Position numbers and translations under genes: made by a program
Assembly: GCA_963809925.1 (NCBI GenBank)
Contig: CAWELH010000007.1
Coordinates: forward strand, 98,347-162,346
Reading direction: 5' to 3'
DNA from: an uncultured Bacteroidales bacterium
GTDB taxonomy: Bacteria; Bacteroidota; Bacteroidia; Bacteroidales; GCA-2748055
DNA length: 64,000 nt
In this document: piece by piece, positions 480-55,185 of the stretch
Numbering within the stretch: position 1 is the first letter of the stretch
Layout: each line of letters starts with the position of its first letter
The notes under the pieces: model-generated
What the model was told of the DNA's origin: nothing
Databases searched by the model: none
What the model saw: the letters and a program-made list of their open reading frames with translations, nothing else

Positions 480-515
480 GGAAGTAAGGCTGGAATTCAC
501 ACTAACAACACCTTT

Positions 516-1475
516 ATGCAGAAAGATACATCACGAAAAGTAAAGCTCGGCATATTTGTCACGATCGTGCTCGCAGCATTTTTCTTTGCCATTTATTTTG
601 TCGGCAAAAACATGAACCTGTTCCATGAAGTTACCAAGATATACACGGTATTTCCCGACATTAAAGGTCTTGGAAGAGGAAGCAATGTAAGGTTCTCGGG
701 TATAACCGTTGGCACTGTTTCTGCGATAAGCATCAGCAATGATACAATTGTTCGCGTTGAAATTTCAATCCAGACCGATTATGTGAAGTTCGTGAAGGAA
801 GATTCAAAGGTCGAGATCACGAACGACGGACTCATGGGAAACAAGATCCTCATCATTCATCATGGTTCTTCCGATTCCCCTTCGGTTAAGGAATACCAGA
901 CGTTGCAGTCATCGAAGACCATCAACGTAGAGGACATTGTGAATGAAGCAACGAAGATCATCATAAACGCACGCGATGCCACAAATGTCTTTCTGGAAGT
1001 AAGCAACCAATTAAAATCTGGGAAAGGCGACCTCGGACGACTGATCTACGACACCTCTCTCACACAAAATCTGAAAAGCACTATGAACCACCTTCTGGTC
1101 ACCTCCCGGAATACCGAGGAGCTCACCAACCATATCCGCGAAGGTGAAGGCGATCTGGGAACACTGATATACAGTGATTCACTTACAAACAGCCTCCGTA
1201 CATCATTCCTGGAACTGGAGCAGGCCACCGAAAATATCCAGAAAATATCCCAAAGTCTCGATACCGCAGCATATCATATCAATGCTGGCAGCGGTATCCT
1301 GCACACCCTGATCTACGATTCGACGTTTATCCGGCACGCCGACTCTACCCTTACGAATATGAATCAGGGCATTGATGAGATAACCAGGGCTTTTGAGGCG
1401 ATCAAGGAGAGCTGGATTATTAACTTGTTCGGGGGGAAGGAGAAGAAGAGGAAGAGTGATGGGGAGAGGGAGTGA
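516..1475 (+). CDS. MCE/MlaD family protein
   Basis: N-terminal TM helix (LGIFVTIVLAAFFFAIYFV), then an MCE-type core (FPDIKGLGRGSNVRFSGITVGTVSAISI). The C-terminal half has three internal repeats (GDLGRLIYDTSL, GDLGTLIYSDSL, GILHTLIYDSTF). The last ~8 codons and the stop lie inside a dispersed repeat module. Confidence 0.75.
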   Translation: MQKDTSRKVKLGIFVTIVLAAFFFAIYFVGKNMNLFHEVTKIYTVFPDIKGLGRGSNVRFSGITVGTVSAISISNDTIVRVEISIQTDYVKFVKEDSKVEITNDGLMGNKILIIHHGSSDSPSVKEYQTLQSSKTINVEDIVNEATKIIINARDATNVFLEVSNQLKSGKGDLGRLIYDTSLTQNLKSTMNHLLVTSRNTEELTNHIREGEGDLGTLIYSDSLTNSLRTSFLELEQATENIQKISQSLDTAAYHINAGSGILHTLIYDSTFIRHADSTLTNMNQGIDEITRAFEAIKESWIINLFGGKEKKRKSDGERE

Positions 1476-1735
1476 TGGGGATCCGCCTACGCTGAAGCTA
1501 CGGTGGACGCGGTCCACAAAACCCTCTTCGGCAAGCTCAGAGAACGCCTTCGGCACGGTTAGGGAATGTCTTTGGCAAGCTCAGGTAGCCCCTTTGACAA
1601 GCCTGGGCCCCCCTTCGGCAAGCTCAGGGACCGTGGTTTCTTGCACTTTTGTGAGAAATAGTCGTTTCGGCTCCGCTCAACGACCGCTGGCAGTTTTCAT
1701 TTTAACATGTTTATTTTGGTAGAGTGGTTGGATTG
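1451..1735 (+). repeat. Intergenic repeat mosaic: AGTGATGGGG x2, one inverted 31-nt hairpin unit, CTTCGGCAAGCTCAG-like motifs x4
   Basis: AGTGATGGGG at 1455-1464 and 1471-1480. 1481-1518 (ATCCGCCTACGCTGAAGCTACGGTGGACGCGGTCCAC) matches the reverse complement of the 31-mer arrayed at 48740-48956. CTTCGGCAAGCTCAG-like motifs lie near 1527, 1573, 1597 and 1618. Confidence 0.8.
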
Positions 1736-1743
1736 TGACCTTA

Positions 1744-1842
1744 CAATATTGTTCTTATATACGTATATGTAGGGGTTCCCACCCCCCACCCACCACCCTT
1801 AATCCGCAAAAAGAACAAATCTCAGCTACCCTCCGCGATGTT
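1744..1842 (-). repeat. G4/C-tract hairpin element, copy A (G-rich strand is minus)
   Basis: TTGTTCTT (1749-1756) and AAGAACAA (1811-1818) flank CCCACCCCCCACCCACCACCC (1778-1798). Colinear with the copies at 21132-21229 and 41321-41418. Confidence 0.85.
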
Positions 1843-2419
1843 ATTAAGCAGAGTGAAGAAATTACTAAGCAGATCAAACCGGGTGTTCCCCGTGCCCCCC
1901 GATTATCTCTTAATGTAAGTTAGGACGGAATATCAGCCAGCGCAAATATGTTTTTTTCGAACATCATCCCAAATCACCTGTATTGAACCACATGAGGCAC
2001 ATAAGGTCACATAAGGAGCCATGGCTACACATATAGACTGGACGGAGTACTTTAAAACAACTTTTCCCCATAACTCCATCACCCACCGTGTTCACCGAAG
2101 CTTTAGTGAAATAATATGTGAACCAATTTCTCCACAATTCGTTTGAAAATTCCCCAATTCCTGGAAATATATTCCACAGTGCATTTCCCTTTCATTATCC
2201 GGAAACCTGAGGCTGCATATTTCAATCCACAGAGAAATAATCCTCGCTTTGATAATTTATCTGTATCGTACTGAATCCGGGAAGTCAGGCAACGATAAGA
2301 ATGTCTCACTACAACAACACCTGCACACTGATATATTACCCGCCCCGGATACTCATGATCCCGTTTTTGGTATGGCTTTTTCACTATAGTATTTGCATTT
2401 AGAATTTAAACATTACGAT

Positions 2420-2590
2420 ATGCCATGGTCAAAAGATAATTATCCCGATTCAATGAAAAATCTGAAACCGGGAATACGGAACAAAGCCATCAGGATCGCA
2501 AATGCGCTTCTTGAGGAGAAGAAGATGGAAGAAGGCAGGGCTATATCCATTGCCATAAGTCAGGCTAAAAAACAGAAAAAAGACGATTAA
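2420..2590 (+). CDS. Small ChaB-like protein (56 aa from the ATG at 2420)
   Basis: MPWSKDNYPDSMKNLKPGIRNKAIRIANALL resembles the ChaB N-terminus (MPY..DLPESVK.LP....I...AFN.A). Assignment by recall only. The track ORF starts at 2393. Confidence 0.5.
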   Translation: MPWSKDNYPDSMKNLKPGIRNKAIRIANALLEEKKMEEGRAISIAISQAKKQKKDD

Positions 2591-2602
2591 TAAGATAACC
2601 TC

Positions 2603-3100
2603 ATGAAAAAAATATGGATCAGAAGCGGAGTCACGACAATCCTGATCATATTCATTGCAACAGCCGGTGTCAGCGCCCAGCGCGACTATGAGACTGCGAT
2701 CGGCGTCAGAGCCGGCGTGTCCAGCGGTCTTACAATAAAGCATTTCTCGTCCGGCAGGTCCGCCTGGGAAGGCATATTTTCGACCCGCTGGGAAGGATTT
2801 ATGGTTACCGCACTATATGAACTTCACCAGAATGCTTTCAATACCACAAACTTCAATTTTTTCTATGGTCCCGGCGGGCATGTGGGAGAATGGCCGGGGA
2901 GAACCGGACACCATGAATGGTTCGACGATAATGTGAAGCATGTTGCCGTGGGAATTGACGGTATCATTGGACTGGAATATACATTTGATGAAATCCCTTT
3001 CAGCATTTCACTCGACTGGAAGCCAAGCTTCAACCTGGCCGAACATGCCATTTTTCTCGCCGACGAGGCGGCGTTTTCCGTCAGATATGCCATAAAATAA
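2603..3100 (+). CDS. Small secreted beta-strand-rich protein, probable outer-membrane beta-barrel
   Basis: Signal peptide MKKIWIRSGVTTILIIFIATAGVSAQ. Alternating aromatic/glycine strand pattern. C-terminus FSVRYAIK. Confidence 0.5.
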   Translation: MKKIWIRSGVTTILIIFIATAGVSAQRDYETAIGVRAGVSSGLTIKHFSSGRSAWEGIFSTRWEGFMVTALYELHQNAFNTTNFNFFYGPGGHVGEWPGRTGHHEWFDDNVKHVAVGIDGIIGLEYTFDEIPFSISLDWKPSFNLAEHAIFLADEAAFSVRYAIK

Positions 3101-3106
3101 TTTGTC

Positions 3107-3547
3107 ATGAAAAAGATCGTTTTTATATTCCCCGCACTGATGTTCATACTGTCTTCAGCAGGACCTGACAAACGTTTCATATTGAAACATGAGGAAGATA
3201 ATGTTAAGGTTTATTACCGCTGGAAGAAAACGATCTTCAGTCCTGAGGATACCCGGACGCTTTTACTTTACCTGTCCAATGAAAACGATTATCGTGTGCA
3301 GGTCAGCTTTACTATTGATATTTTCAGTGATGTATTCCTGTCGGCGAGCAGTGACACGCTTACGTACTGTATTCCGCCTCATTACGAAATTACGGGAAAC
3401 TTCAGGGACCTGGAATTCTCTGTTGAGGGCACTGCCCTCGATTCAACCGGGAATGACAGGATGGTAGAATGGGAAATCAATGATTTTAGCGTAGCTAGGA
3501 ACGACTCCTGTGTGACCAGTGCAAACTGGCGTTCAGCGGATGAATAA
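3107..3547 (+). CDS. Hypothetical secreted protein
   Basis: Signal-like N-terminus MKKIVFIFPALMFILSSAG. Starts 6 nt after the preceding gene. No recognised motif. Confidence 0.45.
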   Translation: MKKIVFIFPALMFILSSAGPDKRFILKHEEDNVKVYYRWKKTIFSPEDTRTLLLYLSNENDYRVQVSFTIDIFSDVFLSASSDTLTYCIPPHYEITGNFRDLEFSVEGTALDSTGNDRMVEWEINDFSVARNDSCVTSANWRSADE

Positions 3548-3959
3548 TTTGAGAAAGATGGAAACTCAGGATTACAGAAACTATTATGTTCAACTTGTTC
3601 ACTTTTCGAATGCGAAAAAGGGGAATAAAAATACGAGCTTTTTGCCGCTAACCGGAAGTGTGCAAATGCTCGTTGTGATGGTCCATATGCTCCGGAAGGA
3701 GATCTCCGTGGACCTTGAGGTCATGACGGGCACGGATACCAGGGATCTCTATACCGCGGGGTAAATTAATCCAGGTAGCCTGTCCGGCGATGGCAGGCAT
3801 GACAGCTTCACCGCTTTATAGCCTTCCATGGATATTCAGATCCAGCATGCCGGGATGATTTTTCCCCGGTACCTAAACGATCGTCGACGGGTGGTTACGT
3901 TGTTGATCCGGCAACCGGGAGAAGCGGGATCACGGCCTGTCCCGGACAGATGCAGGGTT

Positions 3960-5138
3960 TCAGACCAGGAAGTTTTCAGGAATAGTTTTCAGGCGACAAA
4001 CATCTGCAATTTTCTCTTTTACCTCAAAACCCTTTGTACAGGTGATCCGGCACTCTCCGCAGTTTTCGCAGGCGTGATCCGAAATTCCGGATTTCACAAC
4101 CACCCTTTGTGCCTTCCTGTGTTCCCCATATCCATATGCATACATGTACGAGCGCATCAGATCGGGAACAGGAAGCCCCTCCGGGCATTGTCCCAGGCAT
4201 TCTTCACAACCCAGGCAGTACAGGCCGGTTTCCGCAGAGGCCATCTGAATATCATTTATTTCCTTCTCATCCATTCCGATATTGTTCATCACAGGAAGCA
4301 GGGCTTCAAAGTCCTCATAGGTCTTGATGGTCAGGATGGCCGTGTGAACGTTCTCATCGCGGAGGACCCATTTCAGGGCAGCGGTCTTGTTCACGGGCTT
4401 GGTCTGTTCTTTGTCGAGAAAGCCACCGGCAAATACCTTCATCGCTACCACAGAAAGACCCGCGGCGGAGGCTTTTGCTATGGAGGGCTTTATCCGGTTA
4501 TCCTGAAAAAAATTGTAACCCACCAGCACTGAATCATAAAATCTGCTTTCAACGGCAGCATCGATCATCTCCACCTGGTTGCTGTGCGCCGACAGACCCA
4601 CGAATGTTGCCTTGCCCTGCTCTTTGGCTTTGCGCAGTCCTTTCAGCATATTTTCATTCAGCGCCGACTGCCTGGTGGAAGGTTTGTGCAGATAGAGAAT
4701 GTCAACATTATCGACGCCCAGCCGGCCCATGGTGACATCCAGTTGCTGCATGAAGGCCTTCGTGGTGGCTTCCTTCTGATACTGCCCGGTTTTAGGATCC
4801 CAGGGCAGGAGGATCTTCGTGGAGATGATAAAATTCTCCCTGCCGTATTTCCGCAGCATTTTACCGATCATCAGATCATTCTGTCCGTTCTGGTAGTCCC
4901 ACGCCGAATCGAAATGCCGGATACCCGATTCAAAAAGTTTCCTTACGAGCGCTTCATTGGCAGAAGGTACGATACCGCTGCTCACCACAGGAACCATTAA
5001 ACCGGTTTTGCCCATGGTTCTTAAGATTGGCGCTCCACCGGAGGAATTCTGCTGCTTCCCTGCTGCAAACGCGTTGGCCGGCATCATTCCGGCAGCCATA
5101 CCCGAAAGTGAGAGTTTAATAAAATCTCGTTTTTTCAT
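3960..5138 (-). CDS. Aldo/keto reductase with Tat-like signal and C-terminal 2x[4Fe-4S]-type cysteine motifs
   Basis: N-terminus MKKRDFIKLSLSGMAAGMMPANAFA. AKR-like core (FDSAWDYQNGQND, ILYLHKP). C-terminal CLGCEECLGQCP and CENCGECRITC. Confidence 0.8.
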   Translation of the reverse strand: MKKRDFIKLSLSGMAAGMMPANAFAAGKQQNSSGGAPILRTMGKTGLMVPVVSSGIVPSANEALVRKLFESGIRHFDSAWDYQNGQNDLMIGKMLRKYGRENFIISTKILLPWDPKTGQYQKEATTKAFMQQLDVTMGRLGVDNVDILYLHKPSTRQSALNENMLKGLRKAKEQGKATFVGLSAHSNQVEMIDAAVESRFYDSVLVGYNFFQDNRIKPSIAKASAAGLSVVAMKVFAGGFLDKEQTKPVNKTAALKWVLRDENVHTAILTIKTYEDFEALLPVMNNIGMDEKEINDIQMASAETGLYCLGCEECLGQCPEGLPVPDLMRSYMYAYGYGEHRKAQRVVVKSGISDHACENCGECRITCTKGFEVKEKIADVCRLKTIPENFLV

Positions 5139-5322
5139 CTGGGAATTGTTTGGATAAGGGCGAAAATTAAAGAAATAAATGATGTGCTAAACAAAAAGGT
5201 TATAAAAACCTTTCAGAACAGCAGTTCAGGGTGAATTATCCAGGGATCTGAGAGGGCATACATACGGCAGATCAATTCCCTATTTACCGATTTTTTTTCA
5301 TTGGCATTATGAATATTTTTTA

Positions 5323-5330
5323 TAGTTTTG
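5323..5330 (+). promoter_or_regulatory. Bacteroidota-type -7 box TAGTTTTG upstream of tRNA-Gln
   Basis: Matches TAnnTTTG. Ends 11 nt before the tRNA 5' end. Confidence 0.4.
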
Positions 5331-5341
5331 CATCCCGTAAT

Positions 5342-5414
5342 TGTCCCGTGGTGTAATTGGCAACACGTCTGACTCTGGATCAGAAGAGTCCAGGTTCGAG
5401 CCCTGGCGGGACAA
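5342..5414 (+). tRNA. tRNA-Gln (anticodon CTG)
   Basis: Hand-folded cloverleaf. Acceptor TGTCCCG/CGGGACA, D arm GTGT-AATTGGCA-ACAC, anticodon arm TCTGA-CTCTGGA-TCAGA, T arm CCAGG-TTCGAGC-CCTGG, 73 nt. CCA is not encoded. Confidence 0.9.
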
Positions 5415-5428
5415 CATAGATAGATTAA

Positions 5429-5470
5429 AACCCCTTCTAATTGAGGTATTTAGAAGGGGTTTGTTTTTTT
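5429..5470 (+). terminator. Rho-independent terminator after tRNA-Gln
   Basis: 12-bp stem AACCCCTTCTAA / TTAGAAGGGGTT with a 9-nt loop, followed by GTTTTTTT. Confidence 0.7.
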
Positions 5471-5599
5471 AGGGGACAATTCAGGGGACATTATGAATCT
5501 TTCCTATTTCTATATGTTTCTTTATTTCATCCCCAAATTTTTTGGAGTATTTTCATAATAATTCAGCATTTGGTTCAGCTGAACCCACACTTTAAGTTT

Positions 5600-5690
5600 G
5601 TAAACCCCTCTAATTTAATTCATTAAAGGGGTTTTATATTTGTTAGGGGAATGTACAGGGGAATTACTGCTCTCTTTTCTATGTAAAAAA
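5600..5690 (+). repeat. Second, diverged copy of the hairpin + AGGGGA..CAGGGGA module
   Basis: AAACCCCTCTAAT..ATTAAAGGGGTTT hairpin, then TTAGGGGAATGTACAGGGGAATTAC. Parallels 5427-5520 (TTAGGGGACAATTCAGGGGACATTAT). Confidence 0.6.
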
Positions 5691-5988
5691 TTACCATTGG
5701 TGGAAAAAACGGACAAATTGACCACCCAATCGCAATTTAAACTGACCACCTAATCGCGGGGTATTTTGCCCCCACTCCGCGGAACAAAGTATAGTACTAC
5801 CCATTCTTAGGACCACTTTTTTTTATTCTTAATTGAAATTTATCATTCTTTTGATGATGTAATCCGGTGTTAATTACCGGAAATCACTCGTAGTGAAGCG
5901 AAGAGTTATTCTGGTTATTAACACCTTTTCTTTTTTGCCTACTTTTTTCTTTTGTTAATACGCTTTCACCGGTTGATACCTCCCATTT

Positions 5989-6828
5989 TCAATACCGGAA
6001 CGAGAAGCCCACAAAAAATACCTTGGGAGACGTATTCTTCAACCCATAATACACTCCGGTATCCAGCTTAAGGTTTTCTTTCCATTCATAAACCAATCCT
6101 GAATTTAAAAAATACGCATTCGTTTTCAGCTCATTGTCCCGTTCGGCCAGGCCTTCAGCAAAGAAAGAAACCGGCCCGGCCAACGGGTGTGCAAGGGTAG
6201 CCGAAACCAGCGGGTTTACGTGATATGCCCCGCCGGCATGTCCTTCTTCCACATCCATCTCAGCCTGTGCGCCAAAACCCCAGTTGTGCGGCAGCGATAT
6301 ACTGAAAGGGAAAACCACACCCCCGGAAATTTTTGAACCGGAATTTGTGGGAACATTGACAAAAGGCAGAATGGCCATTGCGGTATTGCCGTTATCATTC
6401 CCCAGGATGTTTTGCTTAGCCCTGATGGTTAGGGTACCGAAAGAGGAATGCGATGATGGTTGGGAACTTCCGTCCATCACTCTTATCTCGTCATAGGATG
6501 CCGCAATGAACTGAATGTCGAGCGAATTGGTGATGCCCGCTTTGAGATTAAATACGTTGAACGAATTTTCAATGGTCTTCTTGCCGGCAACGGATGAACG
6601 ATCCGTTTTAAAAAGATCCGTTTCAAACTGAAAATGCCCGGCATCCACGGTATACGGGCTTTCCGTTGCATCGGGACGATCCGTTTCAAAGCTCCGCATC
6701 AGATTACCGGGACACGGGTGAAAAAGGCAGTACCCGGATTTTGCCGAATCCGGCACTGTTTCAGCACGACTTAAAACAGCAAATTGCGGGAGCAGTACCA
6801 GGAGTAGTATATACGTATATCTCATCAT
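5989..6828 (-). CDS. Outer-membrane beta-barrel 'transporter' family protein (MetA-pathway/phenol-degradation-like)
   Basis: Signal peptide. DRPDATESPYTVDAGHFQFETD motif typical of that family. C-terminal FVGFSFRY. The start lies 2 nt after the mntH stop, on the same strand. Confidence 0.65.
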   Translation of the reverse strand: MMRYTYILLLVLLPQFAVLSRAETVPDSAKSGYCLFHPCPGNLMRSFETDRPDATESPYTVDAGHFQFETDLFKTDRSSVAGKKTIENSFNVFNLKAGITNSLDIQFIAASYDEIRVMDGSSQPSSHSSFGTLTIRAKQNILGNDNGNTAMAILPFVNVPTNSGSKISGGVVFPFSISLPHNWGFGAQAEMDVEEGHAGGAYHVNPLVSATLAHPLAGPVSFFAEGLAERDNELKTNAYFLNSGLVYEWKENLKLDTGVYYGLKNTSPKVFFVGFSFRY

Positions 6829-6829
6829 C

Positions 6830-8692
6830 TCAGCTAACGATCAGGATAGGAATCTTTACTTTGTGCCGAACCGTATCAACGGTGGTGCCAAACACGATAT
6901 CTTTAAATCCCTTGTGCCCATGCTCTCCCATAACCAGCAAGTCGATATCCAGGCTTGATGTTATTTTCGCTATTTCGGTAGCTGCACTCCCAAATCCAAT
7001 TTGGATGTTAACCTTATACCCCAGCTCCTTCAGCTTGTCCTGATATTTAACCAGACTTTCATGGTCAAGCTGGGTTTCATAATCCATCGTATTTGCCCCA
7101 AGATAGCGGGCTGCTGCGCTTTCCACAACATGGATAAACGTGTATACTGCCGCTTTACCACCCTGATTTATGGCGCTTTTTATAATCTGTTGATCGTGAC
7201 CAGAGAAATCAATAGCCATGGCAATATGATTATAGGAGACCGATTCGATATCCGCAAAATCCACCGCCTGCCCGTGGGGCAGCTGGGTCCTTTTCAGTGC
7301 GGCAGAAACCACAAACGGATGAACAAAAACATAAACCAGAAGTGCCAGGCAGGCCAGCGCCACGGGAATGACGAAAGAATATATAAGATACTTATGACTC
7401 CCTGCGGCAGAGATCCATCCAAATATTTCGTCATAAACCAGGTGGATATTCAGGTAAACGATGATGGTTGCACTCAGCCATGCCAGGATCTTTACCCATG
7501 TTTTTATGGTGAATCCTTTCATCAGTTTTTTATCAGAATTAAAATGGATGAGCGGGATAACGGCAAATCCCAATTGTAAGCTTAAAACCACCTGGCTTAG
7601 TATCAACAGGCTTCCCAGCGCCTCATTACCAAAATAAATAATGGTAAACAAGGCGGGAATTATCGCCAGGAGGCGTGTGATCAACCTTCGCAACCAGGGT
7701 TGAATTCTCAGATTCAGGTGGCCTTCCATCACAATTTGTCCGGCCAGGGTCCCGGTAATGGTAGAACTTTGGCCCGAAGCAATCAGAGCAATAGCGAAAA
7801 AGGTAGGCGCCGCCTTTCCAAATAAATTTTGCAATAAATCGGAAGCATCCTGAATTTCGGCAACATGAAAGTATCCATTGACATAGAAGGCTGCAGCAGC
7901 GAGCACTAAAATCGCCGCATTTACAAAAAATGCCAGGTTGAGAGCGATGGTGGTATCGAAAAGATTCATTTTAATGGCATTTTTCATTCCTTTCGGGGTA
8001 CGGTCAAATTTCCTGGTTTGAACCAACGAAGAATGCAAATACAAATTATGAGGCATCACCGTCGCTCCAATAATTCCAATGGCTATATACAGGGCATCAC
8101 CACTTAATTTTGAGGGAACGAAGCCCTGGATAAGATCGCCATATTCGGGCGATACAATGAACATTTCGATCAGGAATGAGAAACCTATGATAAATACCAG
8201 GGAGACAATAAATACTTCCATGGTCCGCATGCCTTTTTTCAGGAGGAAAAGCAACAATATGGTATCCAGGGCAGTCAGGCTTATACCCCATATCAACGGA
8301 AGTCCGAATAGCAGGTTAAGTCCGATAGCCATCCCCACAATCTCAGCCAGGTCGCAGGCGGCAATGGCTATTTCGGCTAAAATGTACAAAGGAATGTTCG
8401 CCCATTTGGGATAGGCATTTTTCGATGCCTGCGCAAGGTCCATGCCTCTTACGATACCCAGCCGTGCACTCAGCGACTGCAACAGTACGGCGATAAGGTT
8501 GGACATCAGCAATACCCAGATCAGTTTATACCCGAATTCAGACCCTCCGGCAATGTCTGTTGCCCAGTTCCCCGGATCCATATACCCCACGCTAACCAAA
8601 TAAGCGGGTCCTAAAAAGGCTAAGATTTTTCTCCACCCTTTCTTATCTGTCCGGACTGTTGAGTGTACTTCACTTAATGATTCTGATTTCAT
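6830..8692 (-). CDS. mntH: Nramp-family divalent metal transporter fused to a C-terminal universal stress protein domain
   Basis: GPAYLVSVGYMDPGNWATDIAGG and multiple TM helices (Nramp). The last ~150 aa are USP-like (IAMAIDFSGHD, LLVMGEHGHKGFKDIVFGTTVDTVRHKVKIPILIV). ATG at 8692; the track's TTG at 8698 is an alternative start. Confidence 0.9.
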   Translation of the reverse strand: MKSESLSEVHSTVRTDKKGWRKILAFLGPAYLVSVGYMDPGNWATDIAGGSEFGYKLIWVLLMSNLIAVLLQSLSARLGIVRGMDLAQASKNAYPKWANIPLYILAEIAIAACDLAEIVGMAIGLNLLFGLPLIWGISLTALDTILLLFLLKKGMRTMEVFIVSLVFIIGFSFLIEMFIVSPEYGDLIQGFVPSKLSGDALYIAIGIIGATVMPHNLYLHSSLVQTRKFDRTPKGMKNAIKMNLFDTTIALNLAFFVNAAILVLAAAAFYVNGYFHVAEIQDASDLLQNLFGKAAPTFFAIALIASGQSSTITGTLAGQIVMEGHLNLRIQPWLRRLITRLLAIIPALFTIIYFGNEALGSLLILSQVVLSLQLGFAVIPLIHFNSDKKLMKGFTIKTWVKILAWLSATIIVYLNIHLVYDEIFGWISAAGSHKYLIYSFVIPVALACLALLVYVFVHPFVVSAALKRTQLPHGQAVDFADIESVSYNHIAMAIDFSGHDQQIIKSAINQGGKAAVYTFIHVVESAAARYLGANTMDYETQLDHESLVKYQDKLKELGYKVNIQIGFGSAATEIAKITSSLDIDLLVMGEHGHKGFKDIVFGTTVDTVRHKVKIPILIVS

Positions 8693-21074: not shown

Positions 21075-21131
21075 GATTGGCGGATGCGGGGGATCTGATC
21101 GAAAGAAAAAACACTACATAACCTGTTTTTT

Positions 21132-21229
21132 AACATGTTTGGGAGTGGCTGAGAATTGTTCTTTCGGAGCATTAAGGGTGGTGGGTGGGGGGTGGGATCC
21201 CCTGCATAAGAGTATATAAGAACAATATT
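21132..21229 (+). repeat. G4/C-tract hairpin element, copy B (G-rich strand is plus)
   Basis: TTGTTCTT (21156-21163) and AAGAACAA (21218-21225) flank GGGTGGTGGGTGGGGGGTGGG (21176-21196). Confidence 0.85.
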
Positions 21230-21604
21230 TGAAGCCGTAAATCATGGTATATTTTGTTAGATCTTTTGGGTCAATGGATTAATAGTTCCCTTCGAAACAT
21301 ATCTATCTCTCATCATGCCAGTGATATGTCCACATCAACTCTTTATAAATTCCTGATCTTCCAGCTCTTTTCAGGCCTTTGGATCTTAACATTGATTCTG
21401 CAATAAAAAGTGAAATCAATTCCTTATGACTTTGGGATAGTTATCCCCTTAATTCGGGTGACGTTTGCCCGGGTTCCACAAATCCAGACACACAACCCAG
21501 TGTCCCCTCACTCCTGAGTAGATCCAAAGATTCCCACCCCAATTTGTATTTTCCCCCGTTCAGTTTATCTTTATTCCCTCAACAATAAAATTAACTCAGG
21601 AGAA

Positions 21605-23833: not shown

Positions 23834-24168
23834 TTATTTGATTTGTTGATTTGTTGAATTGTTGATTTGTTGATTTGTTGATTTGTTGAATTTAAGATTG
23901 ATTTATAGAAACTCATCCGATCCATGGGCAAAACCATGGCTATTGTTGGTGAATGCCTCCGGCATGGAAGAAGTGTTCTAAAAATCCTGCTCCATCTTTT
24001 TATTTGTTGAGTTGTTGATCCACCTTCGCTCAAGCTACAGCGGACGCGGTTTGGTGAATTGAAGAGTGATGTAAAGGACATTCCTAACTTCCTAACTTCC
24101 TAACTTCCTAACTTCCTAACTTCCTAACTTCCTAACTTCCTAACTTCCTAACTTCCTAACTCCATCCC
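23834..24168 (-). repeat. Composite octamer-periodic element filling the glnS / UDG-like intergenic gap
   Basis: The module order is colinear with 48410-48739 (see findings). Contains the 47-nt core at 23921-23967 and a 31-nt hairpin unit at 24019-24049. Confidence 0.9.
24081..24160 (-). repeat. Perfect tandem array (TTCCTAAC)x10, i.e. (GTTAGGAA)x10 in glnS sense
   Basis: Counted directly: 80 nt with no mismatch. Ends 8 nt from the glnS stop codon (24169-24171). Confidence 0.97.
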
Positions 24169-25905
24169 TCACTCCCTCCCCGACATCTTCGCCCAAGGAT
24201 CCCGCAATGGTACCGTCCGGTTAAAGACCGGTTTCTCAGGGGAGGAATCGGGATCAACATTAAAATAGCCCAGTCGCTGGAACTGGAACTGGGTAAGAGG
24301 AGCCGCCCCCTTCAATCCCGGCTCAACGTAACAATTGTTCAGAATGCGAAGGGAGTCATCATTCAGAAATTCCTTAAAATCGATACCTCTATGTCCGTCC
24401 GGTTCGGGATCGTTGAACAGCCTGTCGTACAGCCTTACTTCGGCTTTCACGGCATGGCGCGCTGACACCCAGTGAAGGGTGCCTTTGACTTTGCGGTTTG
24501 CCTGGGGTGCGCCGCTTCGTGTTTCAGGATCGTAAGTGCAATGGATCTCAATGATCCGGCCGTTTTCATCCTTCACGGCTTTTTCACAGTAGATGATATA
24601 GGCCGATTTCAGACGAACTTCCTTTCCGGGTGTCAGTCTGAAAAACTTTCCCGGAGGATCTTCCATAAAATCGTCCTGTTCAATATAAATTTCACGGGAG
24701 AAGGGTATGGTTCTGGAGCCCATCGACTCATCCTCCGGGTTATTGATCGTTTCCAATTCCTCCACGAGGTCTTCGGGATAATTGGTGATCACGAGTTTTA
24801 GGGGATCCAGGACCGCCATCACTCTGGCAGCCTTTATATTTAGATCTTCACGGACTGAATGTTCCAGAAGTCCGACATCGATGATGCCGTCAACCTTGGT
24901 TACGCCGATGCGCTCAGCAAAATTCCGGATGGATACCGGTGTGTACCCCCTGCGGCGAAGACCTGAGATAGTGGGCATCCGGGGATCATCCCAGCCCCTG
25001 ACGAGACAATTCTTTACCAGTTCCAGCATCTTTCTCTTGCTCATGATGGTATAGCTGAGATTCAGCCGAGCAAACTCAATCTGTCTGGGCCGGACATTTC
25101 CTAAATTTCGAGGCATATTTACATCCCATCCATAGTTGGTAACCTGATCAAGAAACCAGTCGTAGAGCGGCCTGTGAACTTCAAATTCCAGTGTACATAT
25201 GGAATGGGTTATTCCCTCAAAATAATCAGACTGCCCGTGCGCATAATCGTACATTGGATAAATACACCAGGCATCACCGGTTCGATGATGAGATTTTCGC
25301 ATGATCCTGTACATAAGTGGATCCCGCATGTGCATATTTGGCGAGGACATATCGATTTTTGCCCTAAGGACATGAGTTCCTTCAGCAAATTCTCCCTTTT
25401 TCATCCTCTCAAAAAGATCCAGGTTCTCCTCAACACTACGATCCCGGTAAGGACTTACGCTGCCAGGTGTGGTGGGTGTACCTTTCTGTTCGGCAATGGC
25501 TTCTGCACTCTGATCATCAACATATGCCTTCCCGTCCCTGATAAGTTTTTTCGCCCACTCATAGAGCTGATAAAAATAATCAGACGCAAAGTACTCCCTG
25601 TCGTCCCATCCGAAGCCCAGCCACTTGATGTCTTCCCTGATGGAATCGACATACTCAATCTCCTCTTTTGTCGGGTTTGTATCATCGAACCTCAGGTTTG
25701 TCAGTCCGCCAAACTTTTCAGCTATACCAAAATCTATACATATAGCCTTGGCATGGCCGATATGCAGATAACCGTTTGGCTCGGGTGGGAAACGGGTATG
25801 AACCCTATCTCCGTTCTTTCCCGATTTGAGGTCTTCATCAACGATCACCTCAATAAAATTCAGACTTTTCTTCTCAGTTTTTGGCTCTTCCGGATGCATA
25901 TTCAT
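24169..25905 (-). CDS. glnS: Glutamine--tRNA ligase
   Basis: [37 protein letters not shown] closely parallels E. coli GlnRS. TIMSKRK (KMSKS-class). 578 aa. Confidence 0.95.
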
Positions 25906-31579: not shown

Positions 31580-31832
31580 ATTGGGTGTTTCATTGTTTTT
31601 ACGGCATTAATACGGCATTAATACGGCAATTACGCAGCATTCGATGTACACAGCAAGCAAATTGTCTGCACCTTTTTTAGTTTGCATTGCGGTCCCGAAC
31701 ATATGGATATTAGCTCATACAAGGAAAAGCGGAGTTTCAGGCTGTGGATTTATATCAAAAATAAACACAGGTAATCTGATAATTTAAGAATTTACCTTAA
31801 ATTGTCGTTATGATTGAAGCAGGGCAACACCC

Positions 31833-41320: not shown

Positions 41321-41418
41321 TATATTGTTCTTATATACTTATTTGTAGGGGATCCCACCCCCCTCCCGCCACCCTTAATGCTCCGAAAGAACAAATCTCA
41401 GCGTCCCCTGCCCATGTT
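41321..41418 (-). repeat. G4/C-tract hairpin element, copy C (G-rich strand is minus)
   Basis: TTGTTCTT (41325-41332) and AAGAACAA (41387-41394) flank CCCACCCCCCTCCCGCCACCC (41354-41374). Confidence 0.85.
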
Positions 41419-41694
41419 CTTCAACACCACCTCAACCATTATTCGCAATAAAATCCTTTATCCACCTTTAACATCCTGTGTTCCAAATAAACCATCTCCT
41501 TTTACCCTGAGACGAAGATCCCCGGTATTGCGAAATTGAGTTTTCAACTTCCTTGTCTGTTTCAATATGTCATTTTCCCCATAGATTACTTACCTTTACA
41601 TTGAATTGACACCTGGCTGGACAGCCTTAAATTGTCTGGGCTACATACAACACGGACCTTCATTATTTAACCTATTTTCAACAACCATTAACCC

Positions 41695-47054: not shown

Positions 47055-47088
47055 TCCGTTGTCTTACTTCACCTAAATAAGATTGAAG

Positions 47089-48420
47089 ATGAAACAGGTA
47101 AAACTCATACTCCTGATTGTGGCCGTTGTACAGATAAGCGTTCAGGCCCAGATAAATAAAAGGATAACTGCTGAAGCTTCAAAGGAAAGTGAAGCAGCAT
47201 TGAAGCTTTGTAAACAGATTCATGAAAATCCCGAGCTTTCAACTATGGAATTTGAAACCGCGGAGCTGATGGCCTCTGTGTTTGAAAAAGAAGGGATGGA
47301 AGTGACGCGTCATTTTGGTGGTAACAGTGTGGTAGGAATTTATAAAAACGGAAACGGGCCGGTGATCATGTTGCGTTGCGATCTGGATGCATTACCTGTT
47401 CAGGAGAAAACCGGGCTGGATTTTGCCAGCACAAAACAGATGAAAAATACCAATGGGGAGGAAGTGTATGTTATGCATGCCTGTGGACACGATATCCACA
47501 TGTCGGTGTTGGCCGGTACAATCCACACCCTGATCGCGTTGAAAGATACATGGAAAGGAACGCTGATGGTCATTGCCCAGCAGGCTGAAGAGATTTCCGG
47601 CGGTGCCACCACAGCCATCAAGGCAGGTCTGTTTCAGAAATTTCCCGTACCTGATTATGCACTGGCCTACCATATAAATCCCGATGTCGAGTCGGGCAAG
47701 ATCGGACTGGTTAGCGGACCGGCTCTTGCAGGTGTTAAGACCGTATATATTACCGTGCACGGTAAAGGCGGACACGGAGCCCTCCCGGAGAAATGCATCG
47801 ATCCCATCGTTATCGCTTCGCGAATCGTTTTAGACCTTCAGACCATTGTCAGCAGGGAGGTCAGCCCTCAGGAACCCGCAGTTGTAACTGTCGGATCCAT
47901 CCATGGAGGTACCCGGCCAAACATCATCCCCGATGAGGTAAAGCTGGAACTTACCCTGCGCTATTACAGCGATGAGGTCATAGATCAGATTATAAGCGCA
48001 ATAAACAGAATCTGCCGTGGCGCAGCACTTACTGCCGGCTTGCCGGAAAACCTGATGCCGGAAGTGATCGTATCTCCCGAAAATACACCTCCGGTAATTA
48101 ACAATGCCAGACTTAAAAGTGATATTGAATCCTTCTCCGGTGGCATCCTTGGCGCTCAGAATGTGGTTCCGGTAAAACCCGTGATGGGTGCCGAAGACTT
48201 CGGCCTCTATGGCAAAACACCAGAAAATATTCCCATTTTTCTGATCTGGTTAGGGATCACGAAACCCGAGCTGATGGCCGAGTATAAAAGCAAAGGCCAG
48301 TCACCTCCTCCGCTGCACTCACCCAACCTGACGCCGGACTATCAGAAGGCCATTGAGACCGGGATCGAGGCGATGACGGCGAATGTGATTGGGATGATGA
48401 AGGGCGGGGGGAAGTTATGA
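47089..48420 (+). CDS. M20D-family amidohydrolase (aminoacylase/hippurate-hydrolase-like)
   Basis: Signal peptide. LRCDLDALP, MHACGHDIHM, GGHGA. The ATG at 47089 is preferred over the TTG at 47083. The final codons (GGG AAG TTA TGA) are in register with the downstream octamer repeat. Confidence 0.85.
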   Translation: MKQVKLILLIVAVVQISVQAQINKRITAEASKESEAALKLCKQIHENPELSTMEFETAELMASVFEKEGMEVTRHFGGNSVVGIYKNGNGPVIMLRCDLDALPVQEKTGLDFASTKQMKNTNGEEVYVMHACGHDIHMSVLAGTIHTLIALKDTWKGTLMVIAQQAEEISGGATTAIKAGLFQKFPVPDYALAYHINPDVESGKIGLVSGPALAGVKTVYITVHGKGGHGALPEKCIDPIVIASRIVLDLQTIVSREVSPQEPAVVTVGSIHGGTRPNIIPDEVKLELTLRYYSDEVIDQIISAINRICRGAALTAGLPENLMPEVIVSPENTPPVINNARLKSDIESFSGGILGAQNVVPVKPVMGAEDFGLYGKTPENIPIFLIWLGITKPELMAEYKSKGQSPPPLHSPNLTPDYQKAIETGIEAMTANVIGMMKGGGKL

Positions 48421-48739
48421 TGTTATGGAGTTAGGAAGTTAGGGAGTTAGGGAGTTAGGGATGTCCCTTATCACTCTTCAACTCAACAAACCGCGTCCGC
48501 CGTAGCTTGAGCGAAGGTGGATCAACAACTCAACAACTCAACAAATAAGAAGTGATGGGGAGAGCATGAGAGGTGCTTGTAGAAACGATTCATCCATGCC
48601 GGAGGCATTTTCCAACAATAGCCATGGTTTTGCCCATGGAGAGGATACGGTTTTAGAGCTCTCTCTTGAATTCAACAAACCGCGTCCGCCGAAGCTTGCG
48701 CCACCGCTAAAGGCGGCACGCGGTCAGCGAAGGTGGGCT
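48410..48739 (+). repeat. Composite octamer-periodic element (colinear with 23834-24180)
   Basis: GGAAGTTA-type octamers x6 at 48410-48457. Linker GGGATGTCCCTTATCACTCTTCAACTCA. 31-nt hairpin unit at 48491-48521. (CAACAACT) repeats. AGTGATGGGG at 48551. 47-nt core at 48594-48640. A diverged 31-mer with an insertion at 48681-48739. Confidence 0.9.
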
Positions 48740-48956
48740 GTGTCCGCCGAAGCTTCAGCGAAAGTGGACCGTGTCCGCCGTAGCTTCAGCGAAGGTGGGC
48801 TGTGTCCGCCGTAACTTCAGCGAAGGTGGGCTGTGTCCGCCGTAACTTCAGCGAAGGTGGGCTGTGTCCGCCGTAGCTTCAGCGAAAGTGGACCGTGTCC
48901 GCCGTAGCTTCAGCGAAAGTGGACCGTGTCCGCCGTAGCTTCAGCGAAGGCGGATC
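48740..48956 (+). repeat. Seven head-to-tail copies of a 31-nt hairpin-forming unit (GTGTCCGCCGTAGCTTCAGCGAAGGTGGGCT)
   Basis: Units counted at 48740, 48771, 48802, 48833, 48864, 48895 and 48926, with no spacers. Two 3' variants (GAAGGTGGGCT / GAAAGTGGACC). Confidence 0.95.
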
Positions 48957-49043
48957 AATAAATAGTCTCTGTGCTGAATGGTTGACAATTTCATGAATCG
49001 AATTACATAGCAGCATTGGCCGGTGCATACCGAATACTAAAAA

Positions 49044-49634
49044 ATGAAAAAACTTCTTCTGATAATCCTGCTCCTTCCCGGCCTCATCGCATATCCCCAA
49101 AATCCGGATATTGATCTTTTGCGGGCTATTAATCATCACCGCAATCCTCATCTCGACAATACATTCCGCTTTGTCAGTGACGCTACGGCACCCATTGCTA
49201 TCGCAACACCGGTTTTGATGTTTGGAATTAGCCTGGCAAACCATGATACCTGTCTGCGGCACGATTCATATTATATCGCGGCATCACTCATTACAGCTGC
49301 TGCCCTGACAACGGTTCTTAAATACACCATCGACCGTAGCCGGCCTTTTCAAAAATATCCTGATATTATAAAACTCGGTGATGCCGGCAGTCCCTCCTTC
49401 CCTTCCGGACATACGTCCGATGCATTTTCCATGGCCACTTCCCTTAGTCTCACGTATCCAAAATGGTATGTGATCATCCCTGCCTATGCGTGGAGCTGCA
49501 CGGTAGCATTCGCCAGGATGGATCTCGGTGTTCATTATCCTTCAGATGTACTGGCCGGTGCAGTCATCGGGGCAGGATCAGCCTGGCTGTGCCATATCGG
49601 GCAGGAATACCTGAGGAAAAAGTATACCAGATAA
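49044..49634 (+). CDS. PAP2-family phosphatase
   Basis: KYTIDRSRP, PSGH and ARMDLGVHYPSD, the three PAP2 motifs. Confidence 0.85.
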   Translation: MKKLLLIILLLPGLIAYPQNPDIDLLRAINHHRNPHLDNTFRFVSDATAPIAIATPVLMFGISLANHDTCLRHDSYYIAASLITAAALTTVLKYTIDRSRPFQKYPDIIKLGDAGSPSFPSGHTSDAFSMATSLSLTYPKWYVIIPAYAWSCTVAFARMDLGVHYPSDVLAGAVIGAGSAWLCHIGQEYLRKKYTR

Positions 49635-54448: not shown

Positions 54449-54507
54449 AATGCTTTGTATCTACACTATAAAAATAGCGAATTTTTATAGAAAAATGCCC
54501 TTCTTTT

Positions 54508-54690
54508 GATTTGGTGATTTGGTGATTTAGTGAATTGAAGAGTGATTTAAAGGACATCCCTAAATCCCTAACTTCATAACTCCCTAATCATAACTCCATC
54601 ACTCCATCACTTCTTATTTGTTGAGTTGTTGAGTTGTTGAGTTGAAGATTGATTTAAAGAACATCCCTAACTTCCTAACTTCATAACTTC
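54508..54690 (-). repeat. Two tandem minimal units of the octamer-periodic element
   Basis: In minus-strand sense: GAAGTTAT GAAGTTAG GAAGTTAG GGATGTTCTTTAAATCAATCTTCAACTCA (ACAACTCA)n ACAAATAAGAAGTGATGGAGTGATGGAG TTATGA.. GGGATGTCCTTTAAATCACTCTTCAATTCA (CTAAATCA CCAAATCA CCAAATCA). Confidence 0.9.
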
Positions 54691-55185
54691 CTATCTCCCC
54701 AGCAATTCATCCAGATTCTCCAGACCTGCTGTAAATCCTTCCCTGAATCCCATCTCAATGATCTTCTCCAGGTCGGTGAGTCTATCAAACGTCAATACTA
54801 CGTTTACAATAGTAGATCCGGAATCCTCACGGAATGAATTGGACCAGTTAATTGTCGGCATATTCGGATCTATATTTCCGTTTTCATCGCAAAAGGCATC
54901 CCTGGATGAAAACGCTTTCATCGGGTTAATGGTGATGTAATCAACCCGCGACCAGTGCTCTGACCTGTCAGGTCCGACCATGGCATAAAGCCACATTCCT
55001 CCTTCCGAGAAATCCATGGATTTGGTTCTGCCTTTCCATGGTTTCGGAGCCCACCATTGATCAAGAATATTGCTCTGTGTCCATGCAGCCCAAACTTTGG
55101 CAAGGGGTGCTTCAAACTCCCTTTTCACCGTAATGGCTTTCTTTTCCTTATCGACGGAAAATTCCATGATTAAATTACGTTTCAT
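54691..55185 (-). CDS. SRPBCC-superfamily protein (AHSA1/START-like)
   Basis: 164 aa. [20 protein letters not shown] opening typical of AHSA1-like SRPBCC proteins. Overlaps the upstream ArsR gene by 11 nt. Confidence 0.8.

Follow-up and report, generated by a model that had tools for sequence, protein, structure and literature searches.

A two-block composite repeat between M20 peptidase and PAP2 genes of an uncultured soil Bacteroidota species resembles mosaic intergenic repeat families of other bacteria

The window (the whole 64,000-nt stretch of DNA analyzed here) contains a composite of short repeats on the plus strand between an M20 peptidase gene and a PAP2 gene. The original prediction described it as the second copy of an element on the opposite strand, with its modules in the same order; 48410-48739 (+) is indeed colinear with 24168-23834 (-), which lies between glnS and a UDG-family gene, and each module that had been listed lies where it was placed. 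We refer to the glnS copy as copy A and to the M20 copy as copy B, which comprises the following features.

48406 to 48420, plus strand: 3' end of the M20 peptidase gene, its final codons and stop being formed by the beginning of the purine-rich P module
48410 to 48457, plus strand: P1, six imperfect purine octamers (GGAAGTTA / TGATGTTA / GGGAGTTA; TRF 48410-48461 and sequence read)
48458 to 48490, plus strand: T1, the linker of the original prediction (GGGATGTCCCTTATCACTCTTCAA + CTCAACAAA; linker proper 48458-48481), 78% identical to copy A
48491 to 48521, plus strand: solo 31-nt hairpin unit, REP-like, 30/31 identical to 24049-24019
48522 to 48551, plus strand: Q1, CA-rich octamers (TCAACAAC x2.9; TRF), then the block junction AAATAAGAA (alignment A7), the spacer reading (TCAACAAC)2.9 and then AAATAAGAAGTGATGGGGAGAG
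48552 to 48642, plus strand: solo 91-nt unit (U91) holding the 47-nt core (48594-48640), aligned end to end with 18 tandem units of contig L012
48643 to 48679, plus strand: T2 and a Q2 stub (..GCTCTCTCTTGAATTCAACAAA), 88% identical to 48471-48512 (alignment A6), with GAATTCAACAAA at 48668-48679
48680 to about 48739, plus strand: long-loop 31-nt variant, previously termed an interrupted 31-mer (sequence read)
48739 to 48956, plus strand: head-to-tail array of seven 31-nt hairpin units (TRF 48724-48950, 7.3 copies, 93% matches; eight pattern matches)
48955 to 48964, plus strand: right terminus ATCAATAAAT, matching by eye the copy A terminus ATCAAATAAAT

Copy A carries the corresponding modules on the minus strand.

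24081 to 24168, minus strand: P1, ten perfect GGAAGTTA octamers (TRF 24081-24161, 10.1 copies, 100% matches)
24051 to 24085, minus strand: T1 linker (alignment A6)
24019 to 24049, minus strand: solo 31-nt hairpin unit (pattern match, identity to the copy B unit)
23985 to 24018, minus strand: Q1 and block junction (sequence read; alignment A7)
23919 to 23984, minus strand: 91-nt unit, 5'-truncated, with the core at 23921-23967 (alignment of units)
23834 to 23918, minus strand: T2 and Q2, (TCAACAAA)6.5 (TRF 23838-23889), abutting the ATG (23833) of the UDG-family gene

A repeat search comparing the two copies returned three colinear inverted matches (96 nt at 82%, 77 nt at 91% and 61 nt at 87% identity), so the similarity extends beyond the low-complexity octamers. 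The core, for which two differences had been claimed, is identical at 45/47 positions (48594-48640 versus 23967-23921); the two mismatches are neighboring bases (TT versus CA), and the core pattern had no matches in 100 shuffles. Microsatellite length varies between the copies (six imperfect octamers in B, 10.1 perfect ones in A) while the linker (78%) and the core are kept, in agreement with the original prediction. Identity is uneven among modules, at 97% for the 31-nt unit, 96% for the core, 78% for T1, 69% for T2, 66% for the junction and 47% for the 5' part of the 91-nt unit, which fits separate homogenization or separate constraint of modules.

The right end proposed at 48739 proved arbitrary: the interrupted 31-mer opens a 31-nt tandem array reaching about 48956, and copy B extends through its seven units to about 48964. 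The description of both copies as full-length was loose, since copy A finishes with (TCAACAAA)6.5 in place of the 31-nt array and is missing the first (5') third of the 91-nt unit. In copy B the seven units of the array are all arranged head-to-tail at 31-nt spacing. The unit has a predicted stem of 6–7 bp (UCCGCC/GGUGGA, including a G.U pair) and a 14-nt loop, and folds better in the sense than in the antisense strand (-11.4 versus -7.9 kcal/mol for 48491-48521; -109 versus -87 summed over the units). The 'interrupted' 31-mer is a recurring long-loop variant, with a similar unit visible by eye after the second block of L012 (~810-750).

Two further copies lie in the window.

54497 to 54693, minus strand: copy C, two tandem blocks without a 91-nt unit (P-T-Q, junction, P-T-Q; spacing 107 nt, 83% identity)
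1430 to 1690, plus strand: partial relative, with purine octamers, a single 31-nt unit whose loop is flipped, units of 22 nt and a tail (TRF, pattern matches)

Each of the four window copies has the same orientation as both of its flanking genes and begins at the stop codon of the upstream one; in two of them (M20 and MlaD) the element supplies the stop. The M20 protein ends ..GMMKGGGKL* and its 72% relative ..GLMEKGGGR*, and the GGG tail is missing from the 58 other M20 homologues listed, most of which finish ..GLMGK or ..GLMN, indicating that the purine tract adds about four codons to the M20 gene and supplies its stop. In copy A, P1 begins directly 3' of the glnS stop codon (24169-24171) and the glnS C-terminus has its native length, while copy C begins at the stop codon of an AHSA1-family gene. 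The partial copy differs in that its purine octamers encode the MlaD C-terminus itself, followed by a 31-nt hairpin. Purine-rich tails as a general feature of genes were rejected, as a purine-rich tract directly 3' of the stop occurs in only 3/51 window genes (glnS, M20 and AHSA1). A location after a stop codon is not an absolute rule, since the L012 array is not 3' of a co-oriented gene and its left neighbor is divergent.

These copies share one block design, consisting of P octamers, a variable number (n) of 91-nt units, the T module and Q octamers, with two blocks in tandem. P octamers are purine-rich (consensus GRAGTKAK), Q octamers are G-poor and CA-rich (consensus TCAMYAAM), T is ATGTYCTTTAAATCACTCTTCAA, and the REP-like 31-nt hairpins are placed in or after Q. 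The number of 91-nt units is zero in copy C and in the first blocks of A, B and L001, one in the second blocks of A, B and L001, and 3 and 14.7 (~15) in L012. Alignment A6 places the linker in register with the sequence 3' of the 91-nt unit in A, B, L001 and L012, and the block junction motif is common to A, B, C, L001 and L012 (alignment A7, which also covers the P starts). Read from these alignments, the linker is best described as the 3' terminal module T of a block with zero 91-nt units, the 47-nt core as the conserved part of one 91-nt unit, and the element as a tandem pair of blocks.

The long arrays came to light through proteins: when the core was translated in six frames and compared with protein sequences, two spurious ORFs, P0121 and P0122, were retrieved. 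The contig to which P0122 maps is L012, part of ENA assembly ERZ25039539, in which a version of the window's M20 locus is also present (contig_17290, L008). L012 holds 14.7 + 3.0 tandem copies of the 91-nt unit (95–96% matches, TRF). Among 1.84 billion representative proteins only four, all spurious ORFs, read through the unit; an antisense product with a 91-residue period (P0121, P0122) was rejected as a real protein because it reads one DNA unit in three frames. A CRISPR array was likewise ruled out, the units being contiguous and without unique spacers. The 3' 29 nt of the unit (CCAACAATAGCCATGGTTTTGCCCATGGA) do not vary among 21 units, three of them solo copies, and are perfectly kept even where the flanks of solo copies are 47–78% identical, a degree of conservation that hints at constraint beyond what a purely selfish model requires.

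Copies were found only in the window's organism, at the four window loci, in L012 and, as a partial copy, at the start of L001; two relatives had none. The glnS-UDG spacer of an 81%-identical relative (L013) is 72 nt long, with no module there or elsewhere in 19 kb, and modules are likewise missing from the 21 kb of the 72% relative (L010) that include its M20 locus. An exact 24-mer of the core matched genome contigs once, within the first 285 nt of L001, which is probably the chimeric end of a 63%-GC contig; a 20-mer of the core gave six matches in metagenome contigs, all by chance and without shared context. Viral contigs contained no match to the linker or 31-nt patterns, and a literature text search for six element sequences returned none.

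The unrelated flanks of A and B, together with the module-free orthologous sites in relatives, indicate a dispersed element rather than a segmental duplication, as had been proposed. That the similarity instead reflects such a duplication, or an assembly artefact, is suggested by the metagenomic source of the assembly and the chimeric appearance of L001, but the flanks speak against it, and independent contigs contradict an artefact: short-read contig L009 confirms the M20-octamer junction, L011 (an independent short-read Logan contig) confirms the locus at 1476-1768, and, the 31-nt array aside, the only difference in copy B between the window and the second assembly (L008) is a single-base indel in the T1 linker. 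As far as the present data reach, this explanation is refuted, and we give it next to no credence. Within the array the ENA version is one unit longer than the window and also shows unit variants. L009 breaks inside the octamer array at 48456, and the ends of short-read contigs fall at octamers and at another repeat, which supports multi-copy status.

Dispersal could also mean that each block is a miniature inverted-repeat transposable element, with a transposase acting in trans on GAAGAGTGAT ... ATCACTCTTC ends. Compared by eye, T (ATCACTCTTC) and the P start at 1451-1460 (GAAGAGTGAT) are exact reverse complements of each other; GAAGTGAT is present at block junctions, and the orthologous sites of relatives are without modules. 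The solo 31-nt unit also occupies an identical position in A and B, indicating that at least 270 nt were copied together, as one segment. However, the 10-nt complement is exact at one locus and weaker at others, and this short inverted repeat, imperfect in most copies, overlaps the octamer periodicity and may be its by-product. No target-site duplication is definable, as the flanks are microsatellites or gene ends and the relatives are too distant to give an insertion point; no transposase occurs among the 51 window ORFs, and the element is not AT-rich. We therefore regard a transposable element of this kind as quite unlikely.

A coding function is disfavored. Each 91-nt unit could encode a 15-residue peptide, M-P-E-A-F-(S/T)-N-N-S-H-G-F-A-H-G, whose frame is open in the three solo copies and most array units, with ATG or GTG as start and TAG as the end of array units. 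Against this, the site that varies most often is a second codon position (E/A/V), 3/18 units contain frameshifts, the frame ends after 15, 20 or 73 codons depending on the copy, a ribosome-binding context is not apparent, and conservation is at the nucleotide level without a third-position pattern. Comparing all six frames of the core across copies revealed none with protein-like conservation. Such a peptide is thus highly improbable. Similarly, a linker 'ORF' (MSFKSLFNS..) is interrupted in copy B by a 2-nt deletion.

An RNA fold is plausible, though it lacks covariation support. One 91-nt unit folds at -33.3 kcal/mol in the sense strand (z = -2.6, below dinucleotide shuffles) versus -25.2 in the antisense strand, and most single-site variants at paired positions preserve the pairing (A-U to G.U, G.U to G-C, U.G to U-A). 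Together with the invariant 3' 29 nt of the 21 units, these features would suit a functional structured RNA, either a cis element in a 3'UTR or intercistronic region or an array of sRNA genes, for which the composite would be the delivery context. Tandem sRNA gene arrays occur in other bacteria, such as NsiR1 in Nostoc. Yet neither RNAalifold on three core copies nor pair counting on 17 units detected compensatory pairs, double compensatory changes are absent, and pairing does not exceed that of column shuffles. The most frequent variant (T to A in CATTCTCC) disrupts a predicted pair, copy B has three pair-breaking changes, and no promoter or terminator was seen per unit. Whole-element folds were no better than shuffles (z = -0.5, +1.7 and -1.1). 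Rfam returned no family at gathering threshold over the whole window except a tRNA at 5342-5414, and with an E-value threshold on three stretches the best sub-threshold matches (E >= 0.16) were to unrelated families. On this evidence a functional RNA seems unlikely, though worth keeping in mind.

The unit could alternatively act as DNA. Three CCATG(G/C) palindromes occur in each 91-nt unit, two of them 12 bp apart, and would be candidate sites in a protein-binding array for a regulator, nucleoid or partition protein. The invariant segment contains the palindromic hexamer as a direct repeat (GCCATGG-TTTT-GCCCATGG), and arrays of 15 or more units exist. But the window shows no bias for or against CCATGG (33 sites versus 30.8 expected), no candidate for such a protein is linked to the unit, and the solo copies occupy ordinary gene spacers. 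We consider a binding array very unlikely.

Our analysis suggests that copy B probably represents a single insertion of an intergenic repeat family, modular and non-coding, in this uncultured, Prolixibacteraceae-like soil Bacteroidota species. Its tandem modules probably grow and shrink via replication slippage or unequal recombination and may be homogenized by gene conversion. The whole two-block composite may be copied to new intergenic sites, through recombination between shared microsatellite flanks or by an enzyme in trans, and would be retained at tolerated sites, in the spacers that follow genes. Since all four window copies start at the stop codon of a co-oriented gene, they are probably co-transcribed with it as UTR, and any effect would consequently be at the RNA level. 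The hairpins might function as 3'-end structures, given their reliance on G.U pairs and their more stable folding in the sense strand, and the G-free Q tract could serve as an unstructured leader before the next start codon.

A stronger version, in which the composite is a purpose-built gene-boundary cassette acting as RNA, strikes us as unlikely. Here the purine octamers would terminate the upstream reading frame, and the 91-nt unit and 31-nt hairpins would be strand-specific RNA modules that set 3'-end stability or processing, or are freed as sRNAs from long arrays. The G-free CA octamers would provide an unstructured leader of the kind preferred by Shine-Dalgarno-independent Bacteroidota ribosomes. 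If so, module copy number would tune the expression of neighboring genes, and an RNA-level role of this sort would amount to a tunable gene-boundary module in a phylum with poorly understood translation initiation and termination signals.

BOX, BIME, NIME and MIRU mosaics are known mainly from a few well-studied pathogens, and the element would be a clear example of a mosaic repeat in uncultured soil Bacteroidota. Its hierarchy of 8-nt, 31-nt and 91-nt units is unusually transparent, and with one block design holding 0, 1, 3 or 15 internal units it offers a good natural case for the build-up and homogenization of a repeat family. In practice, such repeats break short-read assemblies, and spurious 360–390-residue 'proteins' derived from them are already in public protein collections.

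The element resembles repeat families of other bacteria, with no sign of special function in this analysis. BOX elements of S. pneumoniae, boxA-(boxB)n-boxC, have the same fixed ends and variable internal tandem count (Croucher et al. 2011, PMC3049150), just as fixed 5' and 3' modules here bracket 0, 1, 3 or 14.7 units. Both are predicted to form stem-loops if transcribed, neither has a known dedicated transposase, and large BOX copies create spurious ORFs on both strands (PMC3049150), comparable to P0121 and P0122. The likeness is one of architecture only; the host, a member of Bacteroidota, belongs to another phylum than the mitis-group streptococci that carry BOX, and homology to boxA, boxB and boxC is not expected. 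Unlike BOX, the present element has 8-nt microsatellites as terminal modules, an internal unit of 91 rather than 45 nt and blocks in tandem pairs, and whereas BOX is over-represented between convergently transcribed genes (PMC3049150), the four window copies are co-oriented with both neighbors.

The 31-nt unit recalls the REP/BIME sequences of enterobacteria and pseudomonads (PMC2817692, PMC3116915, PMC3733652): it is an imperfect palindrome within their 20–40 nt range, occurs singly or clustered, and lies at gene 3' ends joined with other conserved motifs into mosaics. REPs carry an unpaired GTAG or CGTC end tag, with an 8–9 bp stem and 4–5 nt loop in the CGTC class (PMC3733652), while here CGTC overlaps the stem, GTAG is in the loop and the loop has 14 nt. 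REP/BIME clusters also alternate in orientation, in contrast to the head-to-tail array, and no REP-associated RAYT (IS200/IS605-type) gene is found among the 51 window ORFs.

NIMEs of Neisseria, in which dRS3 repeats flank RS units, similarly interleave short repeats with longer conserved units in intergenic regions (cited in PMC3049150 and PMC3733652). The present element has no 20-bp inverted repeats like dRS3, nor did we see a link to phage integrases or antigen genes. MIRU of Mycobacterium (Supply 1997, via PMC3184786) are 40–100 bp tandem units of variable copy number in co-directional spacers, with ends overlapping the stop or start codon of their neighbors. The 91-nt unit corresponds in size, P overlaps the M20 and MlaD stops, and Q abuts the UDG-family ATG. 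MIRU carry in-phase small ORFs, which in that class couple translation, but the period of 91 nt is not divisible by three and the sense strand has TAG or TGA in all frames; sequence and host differ as well. The family is thus a mosaic intergenic repeat, very narrow and new, of a kind already known.

Both regions were read and aligned, and every module that the original prediction had listed for the composite in the spacer between an M20 peptidase gene and a PAP2 phosphatase gene (copy B) was found where it had been placed:

48410-48457, + strand: six imperfect GGAAGTTA-type octamers (sequence read, aligned)
48458-48481, + strand: linker (sequence read, aligned)
48491-48521, + strand: 31-nt unit (sequence read, aligned)
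Between the 31-nt unit and the core of copy B, + strand: (TCAACAAC)2.9, then AAATAAGAAGTGATGGGGAGAG (sequence read)
48594-48640, + strand: 47-nt core (sequence read, aligned)
Between the core and the interrupted 31-mer of copy B, + strand: GAATTCAACAAA (sequence read)
48680-48739, + strand: interrupted 31-mer (sequence read)

The core had been judged by eye to differ at two positions from that of copy A (24168-23834, - strand), and 45 of 47 positions are indeed equal between 48594-48640 and 23967-23921 on the opposite strand, with both mismatches adjacent; the core pattern had 0 matches in 100 dinucleotide-preserving shuffles of the window. Since an independent repeat finder also returned three colinear inverted matches between the two copies (96, 77 and 61 nt, 82-91% identity), their similarity in pairwise alignment extends beyond the low-complexity octamers. 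The flanking genes are unrelated, as had been claimed (M20 and PAP2 at copy B, glnS and a UDG-family gene at copy A). The observation on copy B is thereby confirmed and its interpretation as a dispersed element supported, though the proposed right boundary at 48739 is not: the interrupted 31-mer opens a head-to-tail 31-nt array reaching ~48956 (7.3 copies, 93% matches), followed by ATCAATAAAT, a match to the final bases of copy A (ATCAAATAAAT), so that copy B ends at ~48964. Copy B is more aptly viewed as a single locus of a repeat family whose modules are arranged hierarchically.

Exact-word scans with the core across species-representative genomes and metagenome contigs returned one contig end (L001) plus six chance matches. 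Among species-representative genomes L001 is the sole match; it comprises the initial 285 nt of a 406-kb, 63%-GC contig of MAG MFD05684.bin.2.41; this end is probably chimeric, judging by the abrupt change in composition after nt 285, where GC rises to 63% (1-285 vs 286-8000). A protein query made of concatenated six-frame translations of the core region in copies A and B matched two 'proteins' (294 and 360 bits). Both pass in turn through the core's three antisense frames, with a period of 91 residues, and are therefore gene calls across tandemly repeated DNA. P0122, one of the two, was placed on L012 (145 kb), a contig from ENA assembly ERZ25039539; this assembly also contains a version of the window's M20 locus. 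In L012, Tandem Repeats Finder detected two arrays of a 91-nt unit (14.7 and 3.0 copies, 95-96% matches), and the sense-strand order there is purine octamers, three units, a short CA-rich stretch, AAATAAGAAGTGA, fifteen units, GTTCACTCTTCAATTTACCAAA and an interrupted 31-nt unit. The 47-nt core thus corresponds to the conserved portion of one 91-nt unit (48552-48642 in copy B). 'Proteins' of 55 to 394 residues that match antisense translations of this unit (P0121-P0125; L012 875-1969 and 1941-2222) are present in public protein collections, and all are spurious gene calls: P0121-P0123 read through tandem arrays in all three frames, P0122 being traced to its array in L012, while the shorter P0124 and P0125 are known as protein sequences only.

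In alignment, one module, ATGTYCTTTAAATCACTCTTCAA, here named T, accounts both for the sequence 3' of the last 91-nt unit (A, B, L001, L012) and for the 'linkers' (A, B, C, L001). Block junctions (AAATAAGAAGTGATGG) are related among copies, as are the starts at gene ends. On this evidence the family takes the form P-[U91]n-T-Q, with two blocks in tandem:

P: purine octamers
U91: 91-nt unit
T: ATGTYCTTTAAATCACTCTTCAA module
Q: CA-rich, G-poor octamers

U91 counts per block pair are 0+1 in A, B and L001, 0+0 in C and 3+15 in L012, and the 31-nt hairpins are located within or 3' of Q. Copy C (54693-54497, - strand) lacks the core and consists of two tandem octamer-linker-octamer blocks spaced 107 nt apart. 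A partial relative at 1430-1690 combines purine octamers, one 31-nt unit and 4-5 units of 22 nt; the latter (CCTTCGGCAAGCTCAGGGA, 1520-1633, + strand, 4-5 copies, ~68% matches) are followed by a conserved tail, GAAATAGTCGTTTCGGCTCCGCTCAACGACC. The 22-nt unit CCTTCGGCAAGCTCAGGGA and a tail related to GAAATAGTCGTTTCGGCTCCGCTCAACGACC also occur 3' of the core in L001 (225-243).

All four window loci share the orientation of both flanking genes and begin at the upstream gene's stop codon, and two of them extend into coding sequence. The M20 gene of copy B takes its last four codons and stop from the purine tract (C-terminus ..KGGGKL); the M20 homologues listed, other than a 72% identical relative (L010), have no GGG tail, and the majority end in ..GLMGK or ..GLMN. 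Purine octamers likewise form the final 14 codons of the MlaD gene at the partial relative, while the glnS C-terminus at copy A is of native length. Since the L012 array adjoins a divergent gene, placement downstream of a co-oriented gene is a tendency rather than a rule. The M20 protein of L010 has a GGG tail of the same kind, and a C-poor, purine-rich tract of ~120 nt lacking octamer periodicity lies right 3' of its stop (L010 11320-11440), which may be a precursor state of the P module. PAP2 lies downstream of M20 in the window (47083-49634) and upstream in L010 (9250-11332), a local rearrangement adjoining the composite.

In L013, a relative whose glnS is 81% identical, the glnS-UDG-symporter-CHAD synteny is kept, but the glnS-UDG spacer measures 72 nt vs 335 nt in the window, and there is neither a module nor a tandem repeat in 19 kb; L010 likewise contains no module in 21 kb. 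The array 'protein' query against the full library found only four matches among 1.84 billion representatives. By these searches, the repeat family is very narrow, with an expansion in the present lineage. Copies A and B carry the solo 31-nt unit at the same position with the same private variants (CCGCGTCC, CTTGAGCG), which argues that no less than 270 nt was copied in one piece. Identity between them is uneven (31-nt unit, 97%; core, 96%; T1, 78%; T2, 69%; junction, 66%; 5' part of the 91-nt unit, 47%), a pattern that fits homogenisation or constraint, module by module.

Against the rival possibility of an artefact, another version of the copy B locus (L008, contig_17290 of ERZ25039539) has identical octamers, solo 31-nt unit, core and T2, with a 1-nt indel in the T1 linker; its 31-nt array (4650-4900) is one unit longer than the window's (48739-48956) and contains several unit variants. 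Short-read contigs from the same sample break off within the octamer array and where another repeat begins, as expected of multi-copy sequence. When L008 is mapped onto the window, window positions 1 to ~5500 fall past the end of contig_17290, which makes a different assembly version the probable source of the window.

A second dispersed repeat of ~110 nt (..ATATTGTTCTTATATAC..GGGGATCCCACCCCCCACCCACCACCCTTAAT..GAAAGAACAA..), unrelated in sequence to the composite, occurs at window 1740-1851 (+), 21123-21234 (-) and 41322-41426 (+) and in L012 at ~720-650 (-). Its G4/C-rich centre lies between the arms of an inverted 7-bp repeat (TGTTCTT/AAGAACA); Rfam gave no match, the C-rich centre has no match in the L013 and L010 loci, and a short-read contig stops at the start of one copy. 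A perfect 11-nt tandem repeat (TACGGCATTAA x2.6, 31600-31628) lies just 3' of a response-regulator gene.

Could the element be a mini-ORF? A 15-codon frame, MPEAF(S/T)NNSHGFAHG, is open in each copy, yet 3 of 18 array units are frameshifted. The peptide is disfavoured because the site that varies most often falls on a second codon position (E, A or V), stop positions vary among copies and conservation is at the nucleotide level; an antisense 'protein' is rejected because it is one DNA unit read in three frames. Evidence for the rival reading as a functional structured RNA is mixed. One 91-nt unit folds at -33.3 kcal/mol in the sense direction vs -23.9 +/- 3.6 for shuffles (antisense, -25.2), and ten 31-nt units sum to -109 (sense) vs -87 kcal/mol (antisense), their stems containing G.U pairs. 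A variable stem position of the 31-nt unit is, by eye, G.U, G-C (48928) or A-U (L012), and in the unit at 1480-1510 the loop is flipped, yet G.U polarity relative to gene direction is retained. Pair counting across 17 distinct 91-nt units revealed neither compensatory changes nor more pairing than in shuffles, whole-element folds were no better than shuffles, and Rfam had no family match for the composite. On the rival reading as a protein-binding DNA array, CCATGG occurs twice in the invariant segment and is unbiased in the window. Under the rival MITE reading, a short inverted repeat (GAAGAGTGAT / ATCACTCTTC), imperfect in most copies, would form the ends; the 51 window ORFs, all ordinary chromosomal genes, include no transposase or RAYT gene.

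The composite is most likely a modular repeat of BOX-like, non-coding type, the tandem parts of which would change via slippage or unequal recombination; in keeping with this, the 31-nt arrays in two assemblies of the copy B locus differ by one unit. Copies would be homogenised through gene conversion, as the module-wise identities suggest, and the whole composite would have been copied into new spacers. Read-through from the upstream gene would transcribe the window copies, and since their placement allows this, any effect of the element is likely to be at the RNA level: the hairpins would serve as 3'-end structures, and the G-free Q tract would be an unstructured leader, which in copy A, for example, directly precedes the following start codon.

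The P-[U91]n-T-Q arrangement follows a logic like the A-Bn-C of BOX elements, large pneumococcal copies of which yield spurious ORFs on both strands (PMC3049150), but sequence and host are unrelated. The 31-nt unit is REP-like but does not carry the GTAG/CGTC end tag by which REPs are defined, and 31-nt units do not have the alternating orientation of BIMEs (PMC3733652, PMC2817692). Minisatellite size and overlap with neighbouring genes are shared with MIRUs (PMC3184786), though the present family has no in-phase ORF. The composite family is new; its type of repeat is already known.
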